A stretch of 16,687 nucleotides of DNA from Candidatus Undinarchaeales archaeon (GTDB taxonomy: Archaea; SpSt-1190; JASMDC01), in NCBI GenBank assembly GCA_030753015.1, contig JASMDC010000061.1, positions 1-16,687 of the forward strand, read 5' to 3'. The position numbers and the translations under genes are program-made. Below the pieces are notes generated by a model that was not told where the DNA came from, did not search any database, and saw nothing but the letters and a program-made list of their open reading frames with translations. Each line of letters begins with the position of its first letter. Positions within the stretch are counted from its first letter, which is position 1. This document shows positions 2,347-16,375 of this stretch, piece by piece.

Positions 2347-2940
2347 GTGTTAGCTGACATTCTCGACTTCGTCTCGTTCCTCATGGAGGAGCCCGGTATG
2401 GTGGAACGTATCGGTCGCATCGTGCTGTTCGGTAGCGTCGCCCGGGGGGACTTCGACGAGGAGAGCGACATCGACCTCTTCATCGATGTTCTGAGCGACG
2501 ATGACATCGCATTCGTGGAGGAGCAGAGTCGCTCCGTCCTGGACAGGTTCGAGTCGTCGGCGGAGACGACCTGGCACCTGCGGGGGATAGACCTGCCCAT
2601 CCGTCCCCTCGTCGGACGCCTGGACGATCCGAGATGGGCCGCACTCGTAGAAGATATCAAGGGCAATGGGATCGTTCTCTACGGCCCCTTTGATCAGCTT
2701 CCCGAGAACCTGGAGCGCAGGGTGTTGGTCAACTACTCGCTCGCGGGGCTCGAGCAGAAGGAAAAGATGCGCGTCATACGGCGACTGAAGGGTAGCGTAC
2801 CCACGGGTCTACAGGAAAGGACGCTTCTTGCGGGGAAGGCGCTCCTGGTCGATCCCGTTGACGCAGTGGAACTGGGATCCCTCCTGAGGAAACACGGAGC
2901 GCGCTATCAGGTGCGCGAGGTGTACCTGAGAGAGAGCTAG
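2347..2940 (+). CDS. MNT nucleotidyltransferase with C-terminal Cas2/PaaX-like domain
   Basis: IVLFGSVARGDFDEESDIDLFID motif, GIVLYG end of the MNT domain, then YSLAGLEQKEKMRVIRRLKG...ALLV. Confidence 0.88.
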   Translation: MLADILDFVSFLMEEPGMVERIGRIVLFGSVARGDFDEESDIDLFIDVLSDDDIAFVEEQSRSVLDRFESSAETTWHLRGIDLPIRPLVGRLDDPRWAALVEDIKGNGIVLYGPFDQLPENLERRVLVNYSLAGLEQKEKMRVIRRLKGSVPTGLQERTLLAGKALLVDPVDAVELGSLLRKHGARYQVREVYLRES

Positions 2941-2942
2941 TC

Positions 2943-4202
2943 CTACTGGTTCTGGCTCCATTGCTGGAACTGGTCCGCCCACTCGCCCTGGCTTGTCGGC
3001 TCGTCGGGCGGGGGCTCGTACGAGGGCTGCTCCTCCCGTGGCTCGTTCGACCCGGTCATCGCCTTCACCCGCGTGATCAGGTCCTTGATGCGCGGCATCT
3101 CCACGCCGGCCAGCAGGATGACCACCTCGAACCGGTCATAGCTGGAGATCACGGCGTTCCCCCAGCGCACGGTGCCGCCGGCGCCATCGTTGAGCTGGCT
3201 CCCTAGCCAGCTGATGGCCTCGTGGAGCTCGGACACCTTGGGCGAGGAGGGGCCGGCGACGATGAGGGCCGCCGAGCGTGCGCTCGTGTACACCGCCTGG
3301 GTCGTCGTCCCCTGGAGCACCGCCATCTGGACCAGGTTGGTCAGGCTGGAGCGCGAGTTGCCCTCGGCGTCCACGGGCGATTCTGCCCGGCCCAGGCAGC
3401 ACAGCACTCCGTAGTCGCTGGTCTTGGCCTCGAGGATGGTGTTCTTCAGGTCCGTGGAGTCCATGACCAGGTCCTGCTCCTGTGAGATGGGCAGGCCCGA
3501 GATGGTCAGCAGCTTGATCTGCTTGAGGATCTCCCGGTTGATCTGGTCGAAGATCTCGTTGATACCCACCCGACCTCGCACCTGGGTCGGGATGCGCTCG
3601 TAGAACCACTCGTTATCGGCGATGATGAGCCCGTCCAGACGGGGCAGGAGGTTCTTCATCCCCCAGAGGGCGTTCTCCTCGTACCGGCCGCTCTCGTACC
3701 CGAAGGGCAGCAGCCCGATGCCGATTTTGACGAAGTCGTTGGGATTGACTACGTGGCGCTGGATGAACACCTCGTCGATTATGTCCGCCGCTACCGGCGA
3801 GCACCCGCATCCGGAGCCACCGCCGAGCGAGGTGACGATGAAGCAGAAGTGGGGCATGATGCCGCGGCCGAGGGTGTTGACGGTGATGGTGTTGCGGATG
3901 AGGTCGCGGTTGGCGTTGGCAATGCCCTTGCAGTACTCGGGATTGCCGCCGCACCCCTTGCCGCCGCCGATGAGGATCCGCGACTCCTCGGGGATGTGGA
4001 GGATGTTGAGGTCGCGGATATTGGTGTTCAGGGCCACCGAAGAGAAGTAATCGTCCACCCGCAGGGTGGATATGCCCATGGAGCGGGCGAAGGTCAGCAT
4101 CTGGCTGACGGTCGAGCGTTGGAACTCGGCCACGGCGTCGAGCACGCGGGTGCCCCCCTGACCCAGCCCCATTGCGAATATCTGACTTCCTGAGACGTCC
4201 AT
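2943..4202 (-). CDS. cetZ: CetZ-like tubulin/FtsZ-superfamily GTPase
   Basis: GLGQGGTRVLD (T1), ALNTN..DL, RILIG..KGCGGN (T3), SLGGGSGCG (T4 signature), GLLP..E.G.Y..NA, LDGLIIADNE, FDQINREI, VMDSTDLKNTI (T7). The C-terminal LIVAGP...VRWG...VILLAGVEMPRIKDL pattern matches CetZ rather than FtsZ1/2. Start ATG 4202 (or GTG 4211). Confidence 0.85.
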   Translation of the reverse strand: MDVSGSQIFAMGLGQGGTRVLDAVAEFQRSTVSQMLTFARSMGISTLRVDDYFSSVALNTNIRDLNILHIPEESRILIGGGKGCGGNPEYCKGIANANRDLIRNTITVNTLGRGIMPHFCFIVTSLGGGSGCGCSPVAADIIDEVFIQRHVVNPNDFVKIGIGLLPFGYESGRYEENALWGMKNLLPRLDGLIIADNEWFYERIPTQVRGRVGINEIFDQINREILKQIKLLTISGLPISQEQDLVMDSTDLKNTILEAKTSDYGVLCCLGRAESPVDAEGNSRSSLTNLVQMAVLQGTTTQAVYTSARSAALIVAGPSSPKVSELHEAISWLGSQLNDGAGGTVRWGNAVISSYDRFEVVILLAGVEMPRIKDLITRVKAMTGSNEPREEQPSYEPPPDEPTSQGEWADQFQQWSQNQ

Positions 4203-4220
4203 GATGCACACTTCCCGTTA

Positions 4221-5216
4221 TCAGCCGAACAGGTCCTCCTCCAGCGTCTTCTTCGTGGGCGCGGCCCGCTCGCCGAAGCGGACGTCCTCGAGCTCGCCCA
4301 TTAGATCGGCCTCGAGGCTGACGGCCTTGCGACCCTCCTGTTCAGCCCCTGCACGGACCTCCATGAAATAATTATATATCTTCTGATATCGCGGCCGGAA
4401 CGTTAGGGCGAACAGCTCGTAGTCCGGAGTAGGCGCGACGAAGGTGCGCACGCTCGGGATGATACCGGGTGGCTCCTTGGGCATGCACACGTAAGAGAAC
4501 GAGTTATCGGTGATGGAGAAGTCGGAAGCGCACACGTTCTGGAGGATGGCCGTGTTCATGTCGAGGCCCTGGAGGCTTTCTGCGAACGACGGGACGCACA
4601 GTTCGCCGGTGAGGCCGTCCGAGGCCAGGTACTGGCGCATGCCGTACGTGCCGTTGAGACCCCTGAGGATGTCGAGCATGTACTGGACGAAGGTGTCCAT
4701 GCGCTCGAACGCCGTGTGCTGGTCGACCGCCTTTACTTTGCTCGTCAGTCGCTCCTCTTCGAGCACGATGACCATGTCAGCGGTCTCTTTCATGTCAACC
4801 ATCGTGGCGACGAGGTTGCGCTTGGCGGGCATGGGGTACTCCTTCATGTAGGGGAGGAGGATCACGGCACAGAGGAAGGCGTCGGGCTGGTACTGGCGGA
4901 TGCGCTCGAAGGCGTGGGCGGCCAGTGCCCCGTACTCAGTCGTGGGATTGAGCAGTGCCACGCTCATGCCATCGGTCATGTCCAGGGAGTGGTCCACCCA
5001 GTCCCGGACCAGCCCCATCTTGAAGTCGCGCTTGCTGGTATCGTCGGAGATCTCGATCTTGAGGCATTTGTTGCGGTCGAACTCCTTGAGATCACTGATG
5101 CTCGCCGAGGCCAGGGCAATGGGTGCGCGATGGCGCTCGGTGTACCGCTCGATCCACGTGGTACCGAAGGTCCCGAGCCCGATTAGGTTCACAGCACTCC
5201 CTCCACCGAATGCCAT
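4221..5216 (-). CDS. Degenerate tubulin/FtsZ-fold paralogue lacking the GGGxGxG signature (probable pseudo-GTPase)
   Basis: Colinear remnants: VNLIGLGTFG (T1), ASASISDL, AVILLPYMKE, RNLVATMVDMKETADMVIVLEEERL (cf. NA...L....D.LI..DNE) and AFERMD (cf. F..IN). The T4 position reads LNPTTEYGA. Start ATG 5216 (GGTG upstream) or 5249. Confidence 0.65.
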   Translation of the reverse strand: MAFGGGSAVNLIGLGTFGTTWIERYTERHRAPIALASASISDLKEFDRNKCLKIEISDDTSKRDFKMGLVRDWVDHSLDMTDGMSVALLNPTTEYGALAAHAFERIRQYQPDAFLCAVILLPYMKEYPMPAKRNLVATMVDMKETADMVIVLEEERLTSKVKAVDQHTAFERMDTFVQYMLDILRGLNGTYGMRQYLASDGLTGELCVPSFAESLQGLDMNTAILQNVCASDFSITDNSFSYVCMPKEPPGIIPSVRTFVAPTPDYELFALTFRPRYQKIYNYFMEVRAGAEQEGRKAVSLEADLMGELEDVRFGERAAPTKKTLEEDLFG

Positions 5217-5301
5217 TGTGACACCAGCTAGCCTTTTATGTGCATCCATTCCCGGGCGAGATGCTGGTGTACCGGACCTGGTGATGACATGTATCTGTTT
5301 A

Positions 5302-5403
5302 GATACGAGTGTAACCTAAATTAGTTACAAATGTACCCCTAAAGGGAGTATAGAAATATATTTATAGTTACAAATGTAACCTTATATTGGTTTCTGGTGT
5401 AAC
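5302..5403. repeat. Array of GTTAC-N4-GTAAC palindromes (~22-bp phase) upstream of module 3
   Basis: GATACGAGTGTAAC 5302, GTTACAAATGTACC 5324, GTTACAAATGTAAC 5367 and GTTTCTGGTGTAAC 5390, interleaved with AT-rich TATA-like tracts (5354-5366, 5382-5388). Confidence 0.75.
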
Positions 5404-5404
5404 C

Positions 5405-5803
5405 ATGCAACCCGCATCCCACCGTGCAAGGATACGCGAGAGCGTCGATGTCATCGAGGAGAGCATCACCCGTGGGCTTGTGGAGCGTCAGCGTACCATC
5501 GGCTTTCACACATCCGTGTCGGCAGTGGACATGCTGGAGCTCTACCTCCACGAGCTGCATGTCATAGATCCGGGTGCTGTCCTCAAGCACGAGTGGTTCA
5601 CTTCTGAGCGGAGGATAGCTCAGCGGGTCCCCTGGAGCTTCGAAGGAAGGGACAAGATACTCCCTCTTCTCATCAGGATCGAGTCGCGTCGCAACCTCCT
5701 CTGTTACTCCACGCCCCGCGAGGAGCAGGTCGTTGAAGAGGTGCTGGTCGCATTCCAGGAACTGAGGAAGGTGTTCAGGAGGTTCGGGATCGATGGAATC
5801 TAA
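5405..5803 (+). CDS. HEPN-like helical protein (MNT partner, putative toxin)
   Basis: RQRTIGFHTSVSAVDMLELYLH...KHEWFTS...RRNLLCY; paralogue of 1931-2335. Overlaps the MNT start. ATG at 5405. Confidence 0.68.
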   Translation: MQPASHRARIRESVDVIEESITRGLVERQRTIGFHTSVSAVDMLELYLHELHVIDPGAVLKHEWFTSERRIAQRVPWSFEGRDKILPLLIRIESRRNLLCYSTPREEQVVEEVLVAFQELRKVFRRFGIDGI

Positions 5804-6401
5804 GCTCATTGCATACGCTATGGACTTCACGTCCTTCTTCATCATGAACCTGCGCTACGTCGAGCGTGTGAGGAGGATCATCCTCTATGGGAGCGTTGCC
5901 CGGGGCTCCTCCGAGAATGGGAGCGACGTTGATCTCTTCGTCGACACGGACGAAGACCTCAGCGATGAGGTGGAGAGACTCAGGGACGAATTCTATAGGT
6001 CCGCCCGGTTCACGAAGCATTGGAGGCTCATGGGAGTGGAGAACGAGCTCCACGTTGTGACCGGGAAGCTCGACGAATGGCAGGACCTCAAGTCGGCCAT
6101 GGCGGTTCACGGGACCGTGCTCTACGGACCGTACACGGAGATGCGCTCTGGACGATTGGAGGCGATCGTCACATGGGACCCGGTTAAACCGGCCTCGTCC
6201 CGCGTATTGCTGAACAAACGGCTGTTCGGATTCAAACAGGAGGGGCGCATCTACAGCGGTCTTGTCGAACGGCTCACTGGCTCGAAGCTTGGGCCCAGAT
6301 GCATCCTTGTTCCGGCAGAACACCTTGGACGACTCATGCATGAGTTCGACCGCCTCGGACTGGTCGTGCGCGTCAGGCACATGCGTGAGCTGCCTAGCTA
6401 G
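5793..6401 (+). CDS. MNT nucleotidyltransferase with C-terminal Cas2/PaaX-like domain
   Basis: IILYGSVARGSSENGSDVDLFVD motif, GTVLYGPY, then RVLLNKRLFG...GLVERLTGSKLGPRCILVP. Confidence 0.88.
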   Translation: MESKLIAYAMDFTSFFIMNLRYVERVRRIILYGSVARGSSENGSDVDLFVDTDEDLSDEVERLRDEFYRSARFTKHWRLMGVENELHVVTGKLDEWQDLKSAMAVHGTVLYGPYTEMRSGRLEAIVTWDPVKPASSRVLLNKRLFGFKQEGRIYSGLVERLTGSKLGPRCILVPAEHLGRLMHEFDRLGLVVRVRHMRELPS

Positions 6402-6410
6402 GCATCGCAG

Positions 6411-8258
6411 TTAGAATCCCACCCACTGCCGCATGATGCGCTTCCAGATGAACTTGCGGGCATGCTCTATCAATTTGAACCTGATGGTAACGTACATCAG
6501 GCTGCCGGTCACCGAGAACAGGATGAGCAGGAACAGTGTCCGCTGGCGGAGCCGGTTCACATCCACCGCGCAAGTGCCGTCCTCCTGACGGACGTTGTCG
6601 TTCATGATCCCCTGGAACGTCCCCAGTTCTTCACACGCCTGTGGTATGCAGACGTTGCTCTCGCAGTAGAAGCCATTGATGCACCCGCAGTCGCTGCAGC
6701 ACCGTGCCCGCTCCACCTCGAGGCAGAGGGTGTCGCCGCACTTGATGTCGTACGCTCGTCGAGGCGCGCTGGTGAGGGTGCCCTCGAAGCTCATACCCTC
6801 CTTGAAGCTCATTCCGTCGGGGAGCGACATCGCCAGCCAGTCATCCCCCTGGGGGAGGCGGATGCGCCATTCGCCGGCGTTCTTCGTCCTGTTCAAGATG
6901 CTTGGAACGGTGAAAGTGACGATCTGCTCCTTGACCAGCATGCCCTCGATGGGCGTTACCTTGATATCATTGCCGTGGACCGTGCCGTTGAGCGGGGCGA
7001 GGAGGGCGGAATCCGTGGCGTTCTCCATCTGCCATTCCACCAGTGACAGCACGCCGTCGGGATTAGCGGATAGCACGTCGGCCTCGCCGTAGGCCTTCAT
7101 GTCCTCGACCTCGTGCAATCGGAGCACGGCATGGCCCGAGCCATCGGACAGGAGGCTGAGTGTGACGTTCCGCCGGGCATGCGGCGGGTGGAGCACCTCG
7201 AGCCGGTGCTGGCCCCCGCGGTACAAGCTGCCGTCCACATCCACGTTCATGACCGCCTCGTTGTGCATGATGTACTTGAGCCCGGGGGTTGCCGGAGCGC
7301 GTGTCCGGTACGCCACCACCTTGCGCTCGCCTGCGCCGAGAGTGAGGTTGACTGAGAGGATATTACCCACGCCGGGGACGTACACCGGCGCCAGCGCGCC
7401 GCCCAGGTACTCCAGACGCGGGTTCGTCGGCTCATCGAGCCGGACCTTCACGAGCTGTCCCCCCAGGTTCACGAGGGTGAAGTTGACCTGGAAGCCCTCG
7501 CCCTGGACGATCTTGTCGGGCATCGACCGGCTCATGGACAGCTTCGGGCGCTCGGACGCCCAGGTGATGAGCGAGCGGCCGATGGGGAGCTTCTCGCGGA
7601 GCACGCACAGTCTCCTTGAGCAGTTCAGGCCGGGGACCACGTGGATACCGGGGGTTTCCACATCGAACTTGAAGATGAACCACGTGAAGTCGTCGAACCG
7701 CGAGCCGTTGATCTCCAGGGCATAGGGGAATACCTCTTGGTAGACGGCCTCCTGCGGCGCGGCGGCGGTGTACACCAGGTCGTGCCGGGAGTAGGGGCCG
7801 AAGGGCAGCTCCCGGGTGTGCAGTGCCACTTTCTCCTCCCGAATCCCTGCGGCCTCCCGCGCCAGGTCAGCGCCCATGACCGAGACGTTCATGGGCCCCA
7901 GATCCTCGCTCAAGTGGTTTGCCAGCCGGATGGTGGCGGTGCGCACCACCGTGTCGTTGGGTCCGAGGACCACCTTGTAGAGCACCTCGTCCACGGTCAC
8001 GGTAGTGAGGTCCTGGGACCAGATGTCAGCACTACCCGTGTCGTTCGCCGGTGCCTCGGTGGCGTTGGCGGGGGCGTCGGTGGTGTTCGTCGGTGGCTCG
8101 GTGACGTTGGCGGGGGCGTCGGTGGTGTTCGTCGGTGGCTCGGTGACGTTGGCAGGGAGGTCAGTGGCGTTGACGTCTGCTGTCCCGTTGTCCACCTGGG
8201 CAGCTGTCAGTGACAGGAGGAGTAGGACCATCACAAGGAGTATCGTCGTGCGCGCCAT
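6411..8258 (-). CDS. Membrane-anchored surface (glyco)protein with Thr/Pro/Asn repeats, DUF11/Ig-like domain and Cys-rich module
   Basis: Signal peptide MARTTILLVMVLLLLSLTAA (ATG 8258, GGTGGTGA upstream). Many N-x-T sequons, KLSMSRS...GEGFQVNFTLVNLG...L..GERKVVAY (DUF11-like), CGDTLC...CCSDCGC...YC....C module, and a C-terminal TM TLFLLILFSVTGSLMYVTI followed by a basic tail. Confidence 0.75.
   Translation of the reverse strand: MARTTILLVMVLLLLSLTAAQVDNGTADVNATDLPANVTEPPTNTTDAPANVTEPPTNTTDAPANATEAPANDTGSADIWSQDLTTVTVDEVLYKVVLGPNDTVVRTATIRLANHLSEDLGPMNVSVMGADLAREAAGIREEKVALHTRELPFGPYSRHDLVYTAAAPQEAVYQEVFPYALEINGSRFDDFTWFIFKFDVETPGIHVVPGLNCSRRLCVLREKLPIGRSLITWASERPKLSMSRSMPDKIVQGEGFQVNFTLVNLGGQLVKVRLDEPTNPRLEYLGGALAPVYVPGVGNILSVNLTLGAGERKVVAYRTRAPATPGLKYIMHNEAVMNVDVDGSLYRGGQHRLEVLHPPHARRNVTLSLLSDGSGHAVLRLHEVEDMKAYGEADVLSANPDGVLSLVEWQMENATDSALLAPLNGTVHGNDIKVTPIEGMLVKEQIVTFTVPSILNRTKNAGEWRIRLPQGDDWLAMSLPDGMSFKEGMSFEGTLTSAPRRAYDIKCGDTLCLEVERARCCSDCGCINGFYCESNVCIPQACEELGTFQGIMNDNVRQEDGTCAVDVNRLRQRTLFLLILFSVTGSLMYVTIRFKLIEHARKFIWKRIMRQWVGF
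8063..8153 (-). repeat. 42-bp intragenic tandem repeat (2 perfect copies plus partial) encoding ANVTEPPTNTTDAP
   Basis: CGTTGGCGGGGGCGTCGGTGGTGTTCGTCGGTGGCTCGGTGA at 8063-8104 and 8105-8146, then CGTTGGC. Confidence 0.9.
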
Positions 8259-8260
8259 GA

Positions 8261-9826
8261 TCACCACCCCAGGTACCAGTAGGCCTCCTCGAACCGCTTG
8301 ACGTAATCCGTGGGCGTGTGTCGCCTGAGGTTCTTCGACTCGACCACGAACTTGAACCGCGTGATACTGCTCCCACCACCGATGCGCCATCTAACGAAGA
8401 ACAGGAACGAGGCGAAGGCGAAAGCGAACGATACTGCCATGAAGGTGCACTCGAACCCGTAGATCTCGCAAACGAGACCGGCGGGATGGAGGGTGACAGG
8501 GAAGGACTCGTTACCCGCCTCGAACCCACGGTAGTAGATTCGGCCGATGAGGTTGCATGCGAGTGGATCACGTGTAGCGGGCGTGCTCACATTGCACCGG
8601 TCGATACCGTACTCGCCCACATCGCACCGTCGGTCGAGCAACGTCTCGTTCCCCCCGCAGCGAAGGAAGAGCTCATAGGGAAGGCCCGGGTTTGTGAGAC
8701 TTGTGAACACGATTGTGCTGGCGTTCCCCTCGACGTCCTTTGTCACGGGTCGGAACTGCTCGAAACCCGGTGAGAACTCCCTCACCTCGATCTCCAGTGC
8801 CTCCTCCTGTTCGTCGCCGTCCGTGGAAAAGGTCACCAACCCCTCGTAGATGATCCTGCCCTCGTAGTCATGGAGGGGCAGGCGACCCAGGTCTAGGGGA
8901 CACGTGATCTTGTCGAGGACGTTGGTACAGAGCTGGTCCACCGAGAAGGTTTGGTTTACATAGGCCGTGTTGTTCCATGTGAGCTGGACCGAGATCGTGT
9001 TGTCCCGTCTGAGTATATCGTTCCACTTCTCGAGGGTCGTGTTGACGACCACGGGATCGTACTGGTTCACGAGCCGGGTGTAGTTGGTCAGGGTGAACAG
9101 GGGGTCTTCTGCGAACACGACCGCGAAGGGTGTCTCCAGGTAATCGACGATGCGAGCGCCCGACACTATCTCGAGGCGCGCCGTGTACCGTCCGCGCTCG
9201 TCGGGCACGTCCACGCTCACCGCGTGCCGGATGCTGCCCTGCATCTCACAGCTGAGGTCGATCGGCTGGTGGGAGCGGGCCACTACCTTCCGACCCGGTC
9301 CGAGCACGGATAGGGTCGCGTTGTAGCTCACCCCGTGCTCGGGGCGCCGGATGGTGTAGTCGAGATAGAGCTGCTCTCCAGGACCGAAGATATCCTTGGT
9401 CAGGCCCGCCTCGAGCTCGGTGTTGACGAAGAACACGGTGTGGATGTTGAAGGCGATCGACTCGGACACGGGGGATGTGACGTCGTAGGTGAAGTAGAGG
9501 GTGTGGTCGCCGGGGGTGCTGCATAGCGGGGCCTTCGTCATGATGGTGAACGCCCGCTCAATGTCCTTGCGCACCTCGAGCTTGGGCAGGCCGCCCGGAT
9601 AATCGGTCCCCCAGTGGTACCGGGCGTTCGTGCCGTTCTTCCGGTTGGCGATGCCGTACACGGGCTCGTCGATGAGACCGCGTACCGTGACCTTGTGGAC
9701 GCCCTGGTCACCGGGAAGGAGCACATGGTGGACGTTCTGCACATCGATGATGACCTGCTCGCCCGCAGAGACGCTCGCTAAGCACAGCGCGCACACGAGA
9801 ACGAGAGCAAGAAGCTTGGAAGGCAA
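8261..9826 (-). CDS. Membrane-anchored secreted protein with tandem beta-sandwich (Ig-like) domains
   Basis: Signal peptide MPSKLLALVLVCALCLASVSA (TTG start), beta-rich segments (e.g. FGPGEQLYLDYTI...GRYTARLEI), sequons, paired Cys, C-terminal TM FMAVSFAFAFASFLFFV and a ~40-aa cytoplasmic tail. Its stop lies 2 bp before the next start. Confidence 0.7.
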   Translation of the reverse strand: MPSKLLALVLVCALCLASVSAGEQVIIDVQNVHHVLLPGDQGVHKVTVRGLIDEPVYGIANRKNGTNARYHWGTDYPGGLPKLEVRKDIERAFTIMTKAPLCSTPGDHTLYFTYDVTSPVSESIAFNIHTVFFVNTELEAGLTKDIFGPGEQLYLDYTIRRPEHGVSYNATLSVLGPGRKVVARSHQPIDLSCEMQGSIRHAVSVDVPDERGRYTARLEIVSGARIVDYLETPFAVVFAEDPLFTLTNYTRLVNQYDPVVVNTTLEKWNDILRRDNTISVQLTWNNTAYVNQTFSVDQLCTNVLDKITCPLDLGRLPLHDYEGRIIYEGLVTFSTDGDEQEEALEIEVREFSPGFEQFRPVTKDVEGNASTIVFTSLTNPGLPYELFLRCGGNETLLDRRCDVGEYGIDRCNVSTPATRDPLACNLIGRIYYRGFEAGNESFPVTLHPAGLVCEIYGFECTFMAVSFAFAFASFLFFVRWRIGGGSSITRFKFVVESKNLRRHTPTDYVKRFEEAYWYLGW

Positions 9827-9851
9827 CCTATCGCAACACCACAGCGGGTAT

Positions 9852-9860
9852 CTTTATATC
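9852..9860. promoter_or_regulatory. Probable bidirectional TATA element between divergent operons
   Basis: CTTTATATC reads TTTATAT (+) and ATATAAAG (-), centred in a 57-bp gap about 25 bp from both start codons (9826 and 9884). Confidence 0.55.
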
Positions 9861-9883
9861 TCTTGCACGAAAGGAAGGCACTG

Positions 9884-11830
9884 ATGGCCACCCTGAAGCT
9901 CGACAGGAACCGGTGCACGAAGTGCGGGAAGTGCGTTGTCGCCTGTCCGAACAATGCCATCGTCATGCGGAACTTCCCGGCGTTCTGCAAGCACTGTGAG
10001 CTCAAGGCCGCACCGTGCTACCAGGCCTGTCCGCTGGGCGCCATCGCGGACGTCGGCAACGGTGTGCTCAAGGTGGACGTGAACCGCTGCGATCCCTACC
10101 AGTGCAAGAAGGAGTGCCAGAAGTGGTGCCAGTGGGACGGCGTGTTCGTGTTCGGCGACAAGGCCAAGAAGTGCGACCTGTGCTACGACTTCCAGAACCA
10201 GCCGAACTTCGTTCCCAAGTGCATCGAGGTGTGTGACGCCAAGGCCATCACCACCGACCTCATGCAGGAGGTCGTGCTCGACTACGCGGGATGGAGCGCT
10301 GAGACCATCCCCCAGGAGATCATCGCAGAGGTCCTCCAGAGCTTCACCTACGGCCAGGTCGTCAAGGTGCATGGCCAGCCGGTCCCGTACTACTACGTCA
10401 ACTCGCTGCCCCAGCTCACTGACTGGGCCCAGACCAAGCTCCTGGGTCTCACCATCAAGAAGTACATCGACACCGGCAAGGCGGACCAGGACCCCTTCTC
10501 CTCGCTGATGATGATCATGCGCAAGTCCGCCCAGTGGGTGGGCACCAGCGTGGACGAGAACCTGCTCAAGGAGCTTGCCAACATCGCTCTCATGAACACG
10601 AAGGGCTATGGGCCCTTCGACATCCTGCTTGAGGACGACCAGCTGGAGGAGGTGATGTGCATCGGCCTCGGAAAGGAGCGGCCGATGTATGTCTACCACC
10701 GCGAGTACGGGATGCTGCGTACCAACCTATTCTTCCCCGAGGAATACATGGACTTCACCACGGACCCGCCGGAGAAGAAGTCCGGCGAGGAGGTCCTGTG
10801 GAAGATCATCGAGAAGATGATCGAGCCTATGGGAGAGCGCATCGACCGCCAGCACCCCCGCGTAAACGCGCAGCTGCCGGACGGCTCCCGTCTCCATGCG
10901 TGCATCAAGCCCATGGGATTCTCCGGACCGTCGGTGACGATCCGAAAGTTCCGGGCCGCACCGTTCTCGCCCATCGACACCATCAGGTTCAACACAATCT
11001 CCCTGGAGGCCGTGGTGTATTGCTGGATCGCAATGGAGAGCGAGATCTCGATGATCGTGGCAGGCAACACCGGTTCCGGCAAGACCACCTCGCTCAACGC
11101 CTTCTCCACATTCATCCCTCCCGAGGAGCGCATCCTCATCCTCGAATCGACGCCCGAAATCAATCTGCCCCACCCGCACAAGGCACGTCTGGTCACCGTC
11201 AACAACGCGGACCCGCCCATAGGCATGCAGGACATCATCGAGGACACGCTACGTATGCGGCCCGACCGCGTGGTAGTAGGAGAGGTCCGGAGCGGTGCAG
11301 AGGCACAGGCCTTCATGAACTCGGTCCTGGCCGGTCAGGCCCGCGGCTCAATGTGCACATTCCACGCACAGGACGCCATTTCGGTCGTAAAGCGCATGAA
11401 GAACCCGCCTATGAACATCTCACCGCTCGACCTGCAGGTCCTGGACCTCATCTTCGTCCAGCGCCGCATGTCGCGGGTCGAGGGCAGCAAGCGGAAGCAG
11501 ATCCGTCGCGTCGTCGAGATCGCCGAGATCGACAAGCATCAGATGACCGACGAGGGCGTGCCGCTCATCCACACCATCTACCGCTACAATCCGGACACTG
11601 ACACCGTCGAGCGCGTGCACGCGGGGCTGTCCCCGCTGGAGGAGCGCATCTCCAAATACAACCTCTGCCTCGACGAGGGGCAATTCTGGGGCGAGGTGCA
11701 GGCCCGTACCAAGATGCTCAAGTACCTCATGGCCAACAACCTACGTGACATCAAGGTCTTCATGGACTACATCATCCGGTTCGGTACAGATCCTGCCTTC
11801 AAGCAGAGCATAATCAACATGGACATCTGA
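9884..11830 (+). CDS. Type II/IV secretion (TadA/CpaF/FlaI/VirB11-family) ATPase fused to an N-terminal four-cluster [4Fe-4S] ferredoxin domain
   Basis: N-terminus has 16 Cys in four groups: CTKCGKCVVACP, CKHC-x6-CYQACP, CDPYQCKKECQKWC, CDLC-x12-CIEVC. C-terminus has LPDGSRLHA, TIRKF, Walker A GNTGSGKTT (11063-11089), ILESTPEI, LRMRPDRVVVGEVR (Walker B) and His box TFHA. Single uninterrupted ORF. Confidence 0.92.
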   Translation: MATLKLDRNRCTKCGKCVVACPNNAIVMRNFPAFCKHCELKAAPCYQACPLGAIADVGNGVLKVDVNRCDPYQCKKECQKWCQWDGVFVFGDKAKKCDLCYDFQNQPNFVPKCIEVCDAKAITTDLMQEVVLDYAGWSAETIPQEIIAEVLQSFTYGQVVKVHGQPVPYYYVNSLPQLTDWAQTKLLGLTIKKYIDTGKADQDPFSSLMMIMRKSAQWVGTSVDENLLKELANIALMNTKGYGPFDILLEDDQLEEVMCIGLGKERPMYVYHREYGMLRTNLFFPEEYMDFTTDPPEKKSGEEVLWKIIEKMIEPMGERIDRQHPRVNAQLPDGSRLHACIKPMGFSGPSVTIRKFRAAPFSPIDTIRFNTISLEAVVYCWIAMESEISMIVAGNTGSGKTTSLNAFSTFIPPEERILILESTPEINLPHPHKARLVTVNNADPPIGMQDIIEDTLRMRPDRVVVGEVRSGAEAQAFMNSVLAGQARGSMCTFHAQDAISVVKRMKNPPMNISPLDLQVLDLIFVQRRMSRVEGSKRKQIRRVVEIAEIDKHQMTDEGVPLIHTIYRYNPDTDTVERVHAGLSPLEERISKYNLCLDEGQFWGEVQARTKMLKYLMANNLRDIKVFMDYIIRFGTDPAFKQSIINMDI

Positions 11831-11842
11831 GGACTCTATCGC

Positions 11843-13102
11843 ATGACGGACGACATGTTCTCGGTGAAGGCGGGCCACGACAGGTCCTGGAACCAGGAGG
11901 CACAGGACTGGTCCCAGACGCCCGGGCAAGCCAACCAGGGCTGGGGTGCGCCCGCCCCCGCCATGCAACAGCCCCAAAGCCATCCACCCGGGCCCATATC
12001 ACCGCCACCTGGGCCCACGCAACACGGACCTGGGCCCATGCCGCTCGGCCCCGGTCCTTCACCCATGGGAGGTGCAACGGCCCCCGTCGGTGGCGGCGAC
12101 TGGTACTCGACGTCCGTTGGTGAACAGACGCAGCAGACCACTGACGTCGAGGAGAAAGAGGCCGAGCAGCGCTCCCGGTTCAAGTTCATGGGCCCACTGC
12201 TCCTGCGCTTCGGCCCCGAGCGGATCAAGTGGTACCGCCAGGCCTGTGATGCCGTGGAATTCTTCATGTTCGCCGACGACTGGGTGCTTGTCGCCTCACT
12301 GATAGGCATCGCCGCCTTCGCTGTGGCGTTCCCTGTGCTCACCTCCCTCTCCGACGCCGCCATCATGATGGTCCTCATCCCCGTGACAGGGGGCGGTACG
12401 TTCGTCATCCTGCTCTCCTATCCCATCTTCAAGTTCGAGAACCGCAAGGACGATATCGAGACCAACCTCCCGGACGCCCTGTTCCAGATGTCGAGCAATC
12501 CGCCCCGGACCCACTTCGTGGAGCTGCTGACGGGCCTCACCAAGATCGGGTACGGAGCGCTGACCGACGAGCTGCGGGTCACGGTGAAGGAGATCGAGAA
12601 GGGCTCGTCCGTCAAGGAGGGCCTGGAGAAGCTCTCCGAGCGCAACCAGTCAAAGATCCTGGAGCGGGCCTGCTACCTACTCATCCGGGCGCAGGAGCAG
12701 GGTGTCGATATCGTCGAGGCCCTGGCCGCCCTGGCCACGGACATCAAGGAGACCAAATACCTCCTGCGTGAACAGGCCGCTTCGCTCCAGCTCCAGAAGA
12801 TCACCCTTATAGCAGCGGGCGCCGTCCTCATCCCCCTAATCCTCGGGTTCGTCGTGGGGCTGGCGCAGGCAATGGGCCAGTTCAGCGAGGACAAGGCGGA
12901 GATCATCACCGCCCAGGTCCAGACGGTGCAGCCCATCTTCCTCGGGTACGTGATCATCCACGCCCTCGAGGCGTGTCTGGCCATCGGACGCCAGGAGGGC
13001 GATATCAAGAAGAGCGTGTACTATGTTATACCGGTACTCCTGATCGCGATCATATTGTTTCAGTACGTGGCCCCTCAGGCCATGATGTTGTTCATGGGGT
13101 GA
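11843..13102 (+). CDS. TadC/GspF-family pilus platform membrane protein with Pro/Gly/Gln-rich N-terminal extension
   Basis: IETNLPDALFQMSS...GYGALTDEL...IEKGSSVKEGLEKLSERNQSKILER...G.DI.EAL..LA.DI is the T2SSF pattern. Several TM segments; directly downstream of the ATPase. Confidence 0.88.
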   Translation: MTDDMFSVKAGHDRSWNQEAQDWSQTPGQANQGWGAPAPAMQQPQSHPPGPISPPPGPTQHGPGPMPLGPGPSPMGGATAPVGGGDWYSTSVGEQTQQTTDVEEKEAEQRSRFKFMGPLLLRFGPERIKWYRQACDAVEFFMFADDWVLVASLIGIAAFAVAFPVLTSLSDAAIMMVLIPVTGGGTFVILLSYPIFKFENRKDDIETNLPDALFQMSSNPPRTHFVELLTGLTKIGYGALTDELRVTVKEIEKGSSVKEGLEKLSERNQSKILERACYLLIRAQEQGVDIVEALAALATDIKETKYLLREQAASLQLQKITLIAAGAVLIPLILGFVVGLAQAMGQFSEDKAEIITAQVQTVQPIFLGYVIIHALEACLAIGRQEGDIKKSVYYVIPVLLIAIILFQYVAPQAMMLFMG

Positions 13103-13108
13103 TTTGAG

Positions 13109-14032
13109 ATGGCGACATTCGGCGACGAGATGGAGGTGTACGAACAGGAGAGCACGTTCCGCCAGTTCTTGTTCCGTTTCAACCAGGCTTTCGCTATCTC
13201 GACCCGCATCCGGGAGAAGGACTTTAACGTGCTGTCCGTGGTCCTGCGCAAGGCGCGCATGGACTACGATCCCGGCGAGTACGTCACGCTCACCTACGTA
13301 GCGTGGCTCGCGTCGTTCCTCGGTGTGCTCCTCGTCGGAGGTATCTTCGTCATCGCGCTCGGTGACGTCGTAGGGTACACGAACATGATCGTGGGCGACG
13401 CTATCGCTGCCTTCTTCGTGAGCATGATCGTCTACTCCTACTCCAAGAGCTATCCCTACGGGGAGATCAAGGACATCGGCCTCAGGATCGAGGCGGAGCT
13501 GCCCTTCATGGTCCGGAACCTCGCCATCGAGCGCGAGATGGGCATCCCCATCAAGGACTCCTTTGAGAAGCTGGCCGAGGAGGAGGGGCTCCTGGGACAC
13601 GAATCGCGGGTCATCCTTGCCGAGATCGAGCGCGGGTACTCGGTGACCCAGGCACTGCGCGCGTCCTGCCAGCGCACTGATAGCCGGTTGTACGTGCGCA
13701 CCATGGCCCAGCTCACCCACGCCCTGGAGATAGGTACCGAGATCAAGTCGGTGCTCAACGCCATGGCAAAGGAGGCCGAGACCAACCTCCGCATCGCACT
13801 AAAAGAGTACTCGGGCAAGGTGTCCACCCTCTCCATCATGTACGTCATCGTGGCGGCCGTGGTCCCCGCCATCCTGGGTGCGGCGCTCATCCTATCGGTG
13901 CTCTTCGAGGAGGGCTCCACCCAGCTCCTCTCGGCGGACATGCTCATGATCCTTTATTGGGGCATCTTCCCCCTGATCAACTACACCATCCTGGCCATCA
14001 TGAAGCGGGGACAGCCGTACATCATGGTCTAA
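13109..14032 (+). CDS. Second TadC/GspF-family platform membrane protein
   Basis: IEAELPFMVRNLAIE..MGIP....FE...GLLGHE...IERGYSVTQAL....RTDS.L..R...QL..ALEIG T2SSF pattern, with TM segments at both ends. Confidence 0.88.
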   Translation: MATFGDEMEVYEQESTFRQFLFRFNQAFAISTRIREKDFNVLSVVLRKARMDYDPGEYVTLTYVAWLASFLGVLLVGGIFVIALGDVVGYTNMIVGDAIAAFFVSMIVYSYSKSYPYGEIKDIGLRIEAELPFMVRNLAIEREMGIPIKDSFEKLAEEEGLLGHESRVILAEIERGYSVTQALRASCQRTDSRLYVRTMAQLTHALEIGTEIKSVLNAMAKEAETNLRIALKEYSGKVSTLSIMYVIVAAVVPAILGAALILSVLFEEGSTQLLSADMLMILYWGIFPLINYTILAIMKRGQPYIMV

Positions 14033-14064
14033 GCCCCACTTGAGGGTGACCTGATGTGATCTAC

Positions 14065-14604
14065 ATGGAGCAGGAGTTACTCGACGGACGTGTGCTCGTA
14101 AAGGTGGGCGACCTCACCAAAGAGGACGTGGACGCCATCGTCAACGCCGCGAACTCCGGTCTGATGGGCGGAGGTGGCGTGGACGGCGCCATCCATCGGG
14201 CCGGTGGCAGGGCCATCCTTGATGAGTGCAAGCGAATCAGGGAGACGGATTGGCCAGAAGGTCTTCCCACCGGGCGCGCCGTCATCACCACCGGCGGAGA
14301 TCTCAAAGCACGTCACGTCATCCACACCGTGGGTCCTGTCTGGAGCGGTCGGCCCGGAAAGGACGAGCAGCTGGCCAGCTGTTATACCGAGTCGCTTCGA
14401 TTGGCTGCCGACCAAGGACTTCGGACGATCGCGTTCCCCGCCATATCCACAGGCATCTACCACTTCCCCAAGGACAGGGCTGCGCGTGTGGCGTCAGCTG
14501 CTGTCAAGGCATTTCTAGAAGAGAACGATAGTATCGAGCAGGTGAGGTTCGTGTTCTTCAGCGAGGGTGACGCGAGGACGTTCCTGGAGAACTCCGGGTT
14601 CTGA
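14065..14604 (+). CDS. ymdB: Macrodomain O-acetyl-ADP-ribose deacetylase / ADP-ribosylhydrolase (YmdB/MacroD type)
   Basis: GDLT, AIVNAANSGLMGGGGVDGAIH, VIHTVGP and FPAISTGIY motifs. Start ATG 14065 or GTG 14056. Confidence 0.92.
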   Translation: MEQELLDGRVLVKVGDLTKEDVDAIVNAANSGLMGGGGVDGAIHRAGGRAILDECKRIRETDWPEGLPTGRAVITTGGDLKARHVIHTVGPVWSGRPGKDEQLASCYTESLRLAADQGLRTIAFPAISTGIYHFPKDRAARVASAAVKAFLEENDSIEQVRFVFFSEGDARTFLENSGF

Positions 14605-14620
14605 GCGCACTGCCGGTTTC

Positions 14621-16045: not shown

Positions 16046-16375
16046 ATGGCAGAAGTGGAGCTTGAGCTCGAGCTTGATGACACCGAGTACGACTTCGGCG
16101 AGGAGGTCGATGTGTCCTTCACCGTAGAGACCGACGAGGACCTTTCAGTGCGTGGCGTGCGTGTTGAGCTCGTGTGCAACGGCAGTGTCGTCCAGACGAT
16201 GAAGGAGGAGTTCCCCTCCATCCCCCGAGGCGAGAACGAGTACGAGTTCACCCTCCCCGTACCCCGTGGCAGGCCGACTGTGAACGGAGGGCGTTGGAAC
16301 GTTCGCGGGATCGTGGACATCCCCCTCTGGCCCGATAAGTCCGTGAGCAAGGACATCGTCGTCTGCGAACCCTGA
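16046..16375 (+). CDS. Small acidic beta-sandwich protein, arrestin-N/SpoOM-like
   Basis: LELDDTEYDFGEEVDVSFTV....VRGVRVEL...GENEYEFTLPVP...PT....W.VRGIVDIPLWPD......IVV follows the arrestin-N strand pattern. TTTTTAAG TATA-like element upstream; no signal peptide. Confidence 0.6.
   Translation: MAEVELELELDDTEYDFGEEVDVSFTVETDEDLSVRGVRVELVCNGSVVQTMKEEFPSIPRGENEYEFTLPVPRGRPTVNGGRWNVRGIVDIPLWPDKSVSKDIVVCEP

Follow-up and report, generated by a model that had tools for sequence, protein, structure and literature searches.

In this article I describe a divergently arranged gene cluster that occupies positions 2943 to 14032 of a 16,687-nucleotide stretch of DNA (the window), which is the entire contig C75 of a genome assembled for a Candidatus Undinarchaeales archaeon (GCA_030753015.1; 3.85 Mb in 117 contigs, 98.9% complete, 5.0% contamination). 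On the plus strand, a secretion ATPase carrying an N-terminal iron-sulfur (Fe-S) domain is followed by two TadC-type platform genes, and on the minus strand, beyond a short intergenic gap, two surface-protein genes are followed, past a toxin-antitoxin-like cassette, by an orphan gene labelled 'pseudo-CetZ' and by a gene for the tubulin-like protein CetZ. Families were assigned by Pfam and NCBIfam scans of the window proteins together with the list of open reading frames (ORFs), and the gene content and positions given by a first-pass annotation, made from the letters alone, proved correct at every coordinate checked. All seven genes are under purifying selection (dN/dS 0.07-0.19) when compared with a sister species of the same genus, in which these genes are 92-96% identical as protein at a dS of about 0.3-0.5.

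The ATPase gene (9884-11830, plus strand) encodes a protein of the FlaI/TadA/VirB11 type with Pfam matches to T2SSE (4.7e-32) and Fer4 (1.6e-07), NCBIfam matches to FlaI (4.8e-68) and TadA (8.4e-41) that both stay under the equivalog cut-offs, and a Walker A motif (GNTGSGKT) that can be read directly in the translation. Its N-terminal domain of about 130 aa holds 16 cysteines as four Cys4 groups between residues 11 and 117; residues ~31-131 match DmsB/NrfC/TtrB-type four-cluster ferredoxin models of NCBIfam, and the domain looks similar to poly-[4Fe-4S] ferredoxins of the DmsB/NrfC kind. In an alignment of this domain with that of the ATPase's paralogue (37% identical), 14 of the 16 cysteines are invariant. 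The best matches beyond the genus are 35-43% identical and begin at about residue 147, none of the non-genus matches in that search reaching the first ~146 residues, and a word-index search with the Fe-S domain, a type of search that misses distant relatives, returned a single match, the genus's own cluster. Downstream, TadC-1 (419 aa, 11843-13102, plus strand) has one T2SSF domain (2.8e-09), weak NCBIfam matches to ArlJ and UpsF and a cytoplasmic N-terminal extension of ~130 aa that is rich in Pro, Gly and Gln and contains W-containing motifs, and TadC-2 (307 aa, 13109-14032, plus strand) also has one T2SSF domain (3.9e-13), so that the pair reads as two half-size platform proteins. The Fe-S ATPase and the two TadC genes that the first-pass annotation had proposed for this strand are therefore present, as the T2SSE, Fer4 and two T2SSF matches and the 16 cysteines attest.

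The gap between the two arms is 57 bp long (9827-9883), bounded by a TTG start codon at 9826 on one side and an ATG at 9884 on the other. At its centre, ~28-30 nt from either start codon, lies TTTATAT (9853-9859), the single central TATA element of the earlier description, which a reading of the sequence confirms. The two species share 96% identity over the gap, in which the TATA is invariant, and the element is a candidate common or bidirectional archaeal TATA element. A sigma-70 promoter and terminator scan gave nothing above shuffles, such bacterial models being irrelevant to archaeal promoters. Across the gap, hydropathy and sequon counts describe surface protein 1 (521 aa from the TTG start, 8261-9826, minus strand) as having an N-terminal signal, 10 NxS/T sequons, 12 cysteines and a single C-terminal transmembrane segment with a 43-aa tail ending in YWYLGW. 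Surface protein 2 (6411-8258, minus strand; 615 aa from ATG 8258, the ATG before its signal peptide) has a Thr/Pro/Asn-rich repeat, 18 NxS/T sequons, 12 cysteines, a Cys-rich stalk and a single transmembrane segment followed by a 23-aa basic tail ending in QWVGF. Neither has a Pfam or NCBIfam match. Surface protein 1 has no paralogue in the genome, the Cys-rich stalk of surface protein 2 matches three further loci in it, and the ESM Atlas offers surface protein 2 only a sub-threshold lead (0.78) to a DUF11-type cluster. Both (dN/dS 0.13 and 0.19, respectively) are predicted to be glycosylation-rich, type I membrane-anchored proteins with short cytoplasmic tails, and with 2 nt between the stop of the first and the ATG of the second, and one C-terminal transmembrane segment each, the suggested pair of tightly coupled, membrane-anchored surface proteins on the minus strand holds.

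The last gene of this strand encodes a divergent CetZ (2943-4211, minus strand; 419-422 aa, starting at ATG 4202 or GTG 4211) with Pfam matches to Tubulin (PF00091, 1.9e-16) and CetZ_C (PF21011, 1.3e-11, 44.7 bits against a cut-off of 21.6), a GGGxG nucleotide loop readable as SLGGGSGCG, an acidic, Q-rich and W-rich C-terminal tail, and a dN/dS of 0.068. A profile built from two paralogue pairs matched, among solved structures, 4b46 (1.9e-24), 3zid (2.3e-19), 4b45 (1.2e-14) and then FtsZ (6e-14), and by these profile scores, rather than by a tree, the protein appears nearer to CetZ than to FtsZ or tubulin; I take 4b46 and 4b45 to be Haloferax volcanii CetZ1 and CetZ2. As a separate observation, a WSQ motif and a W/Q/acidic composition are common to the C-terminal tail of CetZ (2943-3060, …GEWADQFQQWSQNQ) and the N-terminus of TadC-1 (11843-12240, …SWNQEAQDWSQTPGQANQGW…), a likeness that may be due to chance or to a common binding motif.

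The orphan (323 aa, 4221-5192, minus strand, its frame open to an ATG at 5249) lies 18 nt from CetZ if the latter starts at ATG 4202 and 9 nt from it with GTG 4211, and since its relatives begin with MNLIGLG, its own start here is probably the GTG at 5192. With a dN/dS of 0.10 over 323 codons against the sister species, it is a real gene, and 'pseudo' is to be understood as motif-less, not as decaying. It has no Pfam match even at E values up to 1 and no NCBIfam match, and a comparison with PDB sequences gave nothing save one chance match; a word-index search of 5.8 billion proteins, again of a kind that misses distant relatives, found two relatives, both the genus's own clusters, and these two were also recovered when 1.84 billion representatives were searched exhaustively with HMMER. 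A third HMMER match (P0004), to a Big_12 repeat protein, was rejected as spurious. A significant sequence match to a tubulin or FtsZ model was thus obtained from none of Pfam, NCBIfam, PDB or hhalign. The tubulin-superfamily reading of the orphan comes instead from the agreement of three weak and partly independent lines. In language-model features (ESM Atlas), the ten best family-bearing matches are all Tubulin/FtsZ/TubZ (top 0.92, 198 of 256 features). In hhalign, a 19-row tubulin-family profile gave E 0.019 over 76 columns, and an earlier 4-row profile gave E 0.2 in the identical register, the pairing, read by eye, covering strands S5 (AVILLPY with LLPF) and S6 (ADMVIVLEEE with DGLIIADNE) as well as the beginning of helix H7. 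Finally, AF2 failed from the single sequence (pLDDT 31.6) and from a 4-row alignment produced a low-confidence model (pLDDT 39.4, pTM 0.40) that provides a weak lead only, for which every listed Foldseek match in the PDB is a tubulin-superfamily chain, the first being the CetZ of Methanosaeta thermophila (3zid_A, E 8.8e-4, TM-score 0.31, 121 columns). The GGGTG(S/T)G signature is missing from the orphan, NPTTEYG standing opposite GGGSGCG of CetZ when the weak register is extended by eye, the hhalign alignments themselves beginning just past the nucleotide loop. Taken together, the orphan is quite probably a tubulin-superfamily protein lacking the canonical GTP loop, as judged from its sequence and model-based comparisons. 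Hence, of the two tubulin-superfamily genes 18 bp apart that the first-pass annotation listed, CetZ stands, as does the spacing if ATG 4202 is the start, but the identity of the orphan as a tubulin has weaker evidence behind it. A prediction of the complex between CetZ and the orphan, run without controls, scored 0.00, 0.53 and 0.26, with a median below the mark, and speaks neither for nor against binding.

The sister species clarifies how these minus-strand genes belong together. In its genome, the blocks corresponding to 2935-5191 and 6415-14606 of the window abut (blastn), so that the ~1.2 kb at 5193-6410, which is missing there according to both blastn and junction alignments, is an indel; at the sister's junction the stop codon of surface protein 2 overlaps the start of the orphan as ATGA, and surface protein 1, surface protein 2, the orphan and CetZ follow each other contiguously, divergent from ATPase-TadC-TadC. 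Because of this overlap and the abutting blocks, the ancestral state would most simply be a translationally coupled operon of four genes (surface-1, surface-2, orphan, CetZ), and the earlier treatment of the surface genes and the tubulin pair as one unit is well supported by their contiguity and coupling in the sister.

The indel itself is a cassette on the plus strand that encodes a helical small partner (138 aa, 5387-5803) without a family match in Pfam or NCBIfam and an MNT-type nucleotidyltransferase (5793-6401; NTP_transf_2 1.3e-07, Polbeta 3.9e-07). It brings its own AT-rich region, with three internally palindromic, operator-like repeats of ~20 nt (TAGTTACAAATGTAACCTTA-like, 5300-5384 within the stretch 5292-5384) located just upstream of the nucleotidyltransferase module, of which they are probably the operator. 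The small partner is 31% identical (5e-18) to that of a second module at 1928-2335, and no Rx4-6H motif is seen in its translation. Since this HEPN feature is wanting, the module at 5387-6401 is best called toxin-antitoxin-like only; the opposite-strand toxin-antitoxin module announced by the first-pass annotation thus keeps its nucleotidyltransferase and small partner but lacks the HEPN motif. The presence of the homologous module at 1928-2940 makes insertion in this species the likelier direction, and the cassette appears to have entered the operon in this species only. No contig from three DNA sequencing runs spans it, which offers no proof regarding polymorphism. Separately, an AT-rich palindrome at 5351-5366 could also drive the orphan and CetZ genes in the opposite direction.

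Within the same genome, the link between CetZ and the machine recurs. On contig C117, a CetZ paralogue (Tubulin 1.3e-22, CetZ_C 1.7e-06) is followed at once by a T2SSF gene, the boundary lying at 12420/12421 of the C117 stretch. The two CetZ proteins are 28% identical, TadC-1 and the C117 TadC are 32% identical (2.9e-43), both pairs are reciprocal best matches, and the C117 TadC is the sole TadC-1 paralogue in the genome, so that the closest CetZ paralogue sits directly upstream of the closest TadC paralogue, in agreement with the connection proposed from the window. In the sister, the locus of the C117 type is contiguous and on one strand, and consists of a 386-aa membrane protein, an A24 peptidase, CetZ, TadC and PrsW. 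The closest paralogue of the window ATPase is found on C40 (47% identity) and has a clear double-Fer4 plus T2SSE architecture, and that of TadC-2 is found on C73 (129559-130614; 31.5%, 2.6e-24); the ORF after it (156 aa) carries a class III signal of the KRGQ type. The simplest history would be that a module of Fe-S ATPase, TadC-1, TadC-2 and CetZ was duplicated, the window copy remaining intact and the other becoming dispersed while keeping CetZ next to TadC-1.

Several neighbours of these paralogous loci were also looked at. A 408-aa membrane protein after the C40 ATPase was considered as a TadC, which could not be demonstrated (hhalign E 0.025 over 50 columns). On C117, the A24 peptidase and CetZ are separated in this genome by three unrelated minus-strand genes (179, 920 and 457 aa; 6479-11227 of the C117 stretch) that are missing there in the sister; the 920-aa product is polytopic, the 457-aa product is Cys-rich and anchored, and paralogues are found on C37 and C51. 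The idea that these two big genes parallel the surface pair was ruled out, as they represent an insertion rather than a conserved feature. On C23 (593-9585 of the 46000-60000 stretch), a further divergent tubulin-like gene, the third, encodes 427 aa with a partial Tubulin match (1.4e-20). It heads a minus-strand run of three large uncharacterised proteins (645, 324 and 959 aa) and diverges from the gene of a 620-aa protein that matches ubiquitin-like and OTU1_UBXL models.

Where the pilins of such a machine might come from is a question for the whole genome. In the window, a pattern scan found no class III signal-peptide ORF and the family searches found no Peptidase_A24 or archaellin match, just as the first-pass annotation had reported for class III prepilins, prepilin peptidases and archaellum genes. 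As a special feature of the locus this absence carries little weight, because the genome holds at least 37 class III candidates elsewhere (ORFs with [KR]GQ plus a hydrophobic stretch, a crude pattern) and four Peptidase_A24 matches, one of them just upstream of the paralogous CetZ-TadC pair. The Pfam models Pilin_N, Class_IIIsignal and archaellin match nothing in the genome, a weak negative given that these models score in few control genomes. One group on C28 (44092-50601), in which four class III signal ORFs (749, 156, 179 and 961 aa) lie beside a Peptidase_A24 match, is a candidate pilin locus and could supply motors whose genes are elsewhere. In addition, 17 ORFs of 580-691 aa (on C21, C22, C25, C26, C28, C29, C30, C36, C38, C39, C40, C41, C76 and C117) begin, by eye, with a [KR]GQ class III signal and a similar hydrophobic segment, and may make up an extensive family of paralogous, prepilin-like proteins. 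As for expression, one RNA library yielded seven contigs that match the window with at least 99% identity: three within the ATPase and one spanning its junction with TadC-1, and one each on CetZ (3493-3733), surface protein 2 and TadC-2, while the flanks have none. These are compatible with expression of both arms without proving it, and the uncovered parts (flanks, cassette, orphan and surface protein 1) are no evidence of silence.

On balance, I regard it as somewhat better than an even bet that the locus encodes an archaeal type IV filament (pilus-like) machine in a form peculiar to this lineage, with a genetic link to a pair of tubulin-like cytoskeletal genes. In one direction, a VirB11/FlaI-type, hexameric-type ATPase with a poly-Fe-S N-domain and two adjoining TadC genes match the gene layout of clade 1/system 1 (Epd-like) loci. 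In the other direction, two predicted glycosylated type I membrane proteins, a tubulin-like protein apparently without a GTPase motif and CetZ would ancestrally have formed one operon. The ATPase and the two TadC proteins would assemble or retract a filament whose pilins and class III signal peptidase would come in trans from genes elsewhere in the genome. Together with its degenerate partner, CetZ would form a membrane-proximal filament or scaffold that could position or stabilise the platform, perhaps through the long N-terminal extension of TadC-1, and may touch the surface proteins via their short aromatic-ended tails (QWVGF and YWYLGW). The redox state of the Fe-S domain, or an electron donor, might modulate the motor.

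A number of results weigh against this picture. The C40 ATPase and the C73 TadC-2 copies have no adjoining tubulin match, and no pilin is assignable to the window motor. In this species, the cassette now parts the tubulin pair from the surface genes, so that their co-transcription here is doubtful, and the RNA evidence consists of assembled contigs that are too few to rank genes and could include DNA carry-over. In favour of the link, by a hand estimate, the five T2SSF-bearing contigs taken at +/-10 kb make up ~2.6% of the genome, and to find two of the three non-FtsZ tubulin genes (C75, C117 and C23) within them would have a probability of ~0.002 by chance if they were independent; the two CetZ-TadC pairs are paralogous, hence the adjacencies are not independent events, and it is better to state that the adjacency appears to have outlasted divergence to ~30% identity. 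Furthermore, the gene-neighbourhood comparison that the first-pass annotation called for bears out the link within the genus, yet comparative support is limited to that single genus. A profile search with the CetZ alignment found no close relative outside the genus on the contigs of 185,579 species genomes, its 79 loci being the sister's two, one in a Thaumarchaeota metagenome-assembled genome (25% identical) and FtsZ-level matches, and among metagenome contigs it found 44 loci, the best ~25-26% identical and none a close relative. None of these CetZ-like loci beyond the genus has a TadC or ATPase neighbour. A word-index search with CetZ at a too-strict 1e-10, which misses distant relatives, returned one match, the genus's own cluster. 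All 15 of the 15 other genomes of the class have FtsZ-level matches only and no CetZ_C, and in none of four more distant genomes with CetZ_C does it lie near a match of the window ATPase.

The most serious competitor, which I consider possible but clearly less probable, is that two independent units merely share a promoter gap: a pilus core serving pilins encoded elsewhere, and an envelope operon whose CetZ pair organises cell shape or glycoproteins. Coupling is directly demonstrated only inside the minus-strand operon, the C40 ATPase does without a tubulin neighbour, pilin-free ATPase/TadC modules acting in trans are common in archaea (PMC4858521) and CetZ1 is known to control cell shape (PMC11621097). 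Against this, a CetZ paralogue lies directly upstream of a TadC paralogue, and in the sister a prepilin-type peptidase immediately precedes the pair; this arrangement would be hard to explain if CetZ had no relation to the platform, and adjacency of the same type is described in Thermococcales and Halobacteria (PMC4858521, PMC9856176).

An unlikely alternative, in which the filament machine is retained and extended, is that CetZ and a dead tubulin partner form a heteromeric polymer that is anchored by the tails of the surface proteins and the disordered N-extension of TadC-1 and backs a redox-gated motor. If true, this would represent a transmembrane coupling of cytoskeleton to surface organelle, duplicated as a module, in a large-genome lineage placed among the tiny-genome Undinarchaeota.

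It is still less probable that the machine is an export or display device, bindosome-like or secretion-like, with the anchored proteins as its cargo or outer part. The locus has no pilin, the ATPase and TadC-2 weakly match the bindosome BasE/BasF models (1.6e-31 and 1.9e-05, far under the cut-offs) and functionalised type IV filament (T4F) machineries have been proposed (PMC13705601). On the other hand, both surface proteins start with Sec-type hydrophobic signals and not with [KR]GQ class III signals, so they are not expected to be substrates of a class III peptidase or a T4F platform, and many class III candidates exist elsewhere in the genome. Lastly, the notion that the cluster has no functional meaning and owes its existence to a variable island rich in toxin-antitoxin genes or to a mis-binned contig, a notion to which the three NTP_transf_2 genes and one PIN gene on the 16.7-kb contig and the indels at both CetZ loci between the two species lend some colour, is very improbable given that the sister locus sits in a 605-kb contig also carrying the ATPase paralogue, that gene order is conserved between the two species beyond the cassette and all genes are under purifying selection, and that the window is present at 0.93-0.99 of sampled words in 11 of 22 listed metagenome runs from six coded studies, the metagenomes containing it being of the seawater type.

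The remainder of the window is of a different nature. The left third of the contig (391-2940) is dense in toxin-antitoxin-type genes, namely a nucleotidyltransferase (391-951) and a PIN domain protein (1164-1793), both recognized by Pfam, and the second pair of small partner and nucleotidyltransferase (1928-2940), recognized by Pfam and by its homology to the 5387-6401 module. Towards the other end, a 109-aa ORF (16046-16375) has weak matches to arrestin N- and C-domains (7.7e-06 and 0.0017, near or below the cut-offs). With regard to the host, the first-pass annotation imagined a DPANN-type cell, whereas a 3.85-Mb genome that is 98.9% complete is not DPANN-sized. The congener has 3.6 Mb, compared with 0.6-1.2 Mb in all 15 of the other sampled genomes of the class, and the contrast means either that the DPANN-type archaea include a lineage with a large genome or that placement or binning is at fault (contamination 5%).

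The window locus sharpens the question of why, in several archaeal groups, CetZ genes adjoin loci of the pilus type. In the sister, translational coupling joins a tubulin-like gene to the gene of a membrane-anchored surface protein. The degenerate partner of CetZ may point to a polymer of two subunits, CetZ has stayed beside TadC and a prepilin-type peptidase in a second copy that diverged long ago, and both paralogues of the motor ATPase have a poly-Fe-S domain. These features offer concrete candidate binding partners.

The first-pass annotation presented the cluster as an undescribed system, but FtsZ-family or CetZ genes in or beside type IV pilus loci have been published for Thermococci and Halobacteria. 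The FtsZ-family GTPase concerned, now called CetZ, is catalogued as arCOG02202. According to Makarova et al. (2016, PMC4858521), clade 1 loci contain an ATPase, two TadC genes and pilins; in most Thermococci these loci also encode arCOG02202, which in Halobacteria is found next to loci of subclade 4F. Similarly, cetZ2 adjoins pilB2/C2 in Haloferacales and Halobacteriales, all the Thermococcales cetZ genes analysed adjoin pilin genes, and co-option of CetZ by type IV systems was proposed (Brown & Duggin 2023, PMC9856176). More recently, system 1, with two platform genes, was assigned to methanogens, Thermococcales and Nanobdellati (DPANN), the last with scattered pilins and an adjacent ATPase and platform, and 4F loci were described with CetZ2 and an adhesin-like protein, the N-domains of the ATPases being variable (Sivabalasarma & Albers 2026, PMC13705601). 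The supplements of these three papers may also list DPANN CetZ loci.

The closest relative in arrangement is the clade 1/system 1 (Epd-like) locus of Thermococcales, which likewise has an ATPase and two TadC genes, CetZ in or beside the locus and extra secreted or anchored proteins, and whose pilins may be encoded elsewhere. The window locus differs in that no pilin genes lie beside CetZ, the ATPase has a poly-Fe-S N-domain and CetZ is paired with a motif-less tubulin-like orphan, after two large anchored glycoproteins and in one operon with them. In the haloarchaeal 4F locus (pilB2/pilC2), cetZ2 likewise adjoins a pilus-like cluster of ATPase and platform genes, one of whose products is adhesin-like, but the lineage is a different one, and the window locus has a platform split in two, an Fe-S fusion and a pseudo-CetZ; the CetZ described here is only distantly related (4b46 at 1.9e-24 and 4b45 at 1.2e-14, as above), the likeness being judged by position.

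The Sulfolobales Aap pilus shares with the window the association of an iron-sulfur protein, arCOG07320 (presumably AapX), with an archaeal type IV filament system, although in Sulfolobales a gene of its own, from a different family, encodes the Fe-S protein, whereas here a four-motif ferredoxin-like domain is fused to the ATPase in two paralogues. The separate Fe-S protein that accompanies Aap-like pili is noted in PMC13705601, in the text of which 'ferredoxin' and '4Fe-4S' do not occur, as 'Fe-S' and 'ferredoxin' do not in that of PMC4858521; an Fe-S-fused archaeal pilus ATPase was not found in the literature, including these two papers, whose supplements may list such fusions. Heterodimeric tubulins with a specialised subunit, namely alpha/beta-tubulin, BtubA/B and the Asgard AtubA/B, chains of which are among the Foldseek matches of the orphan model, resemble the minus-strand pair as two adjacent, co-transcribed tubulin-superfamily genes, the window pair including one without canonical nucleotide motifs; the pairing here is by analogy only, the fold of the orphan being weakly supported. 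Setting all of these systems beside the window, and leaving aside what the supplements may hold, the features that appear to be new are the fusion of an Fe-S domain to the ATPase, a tubulin-like partner that lacks the motif, anchored glycoproteins sharing an operon with a tubulin pair, the A24-CetZ-TadC operon and the host lineage itself.

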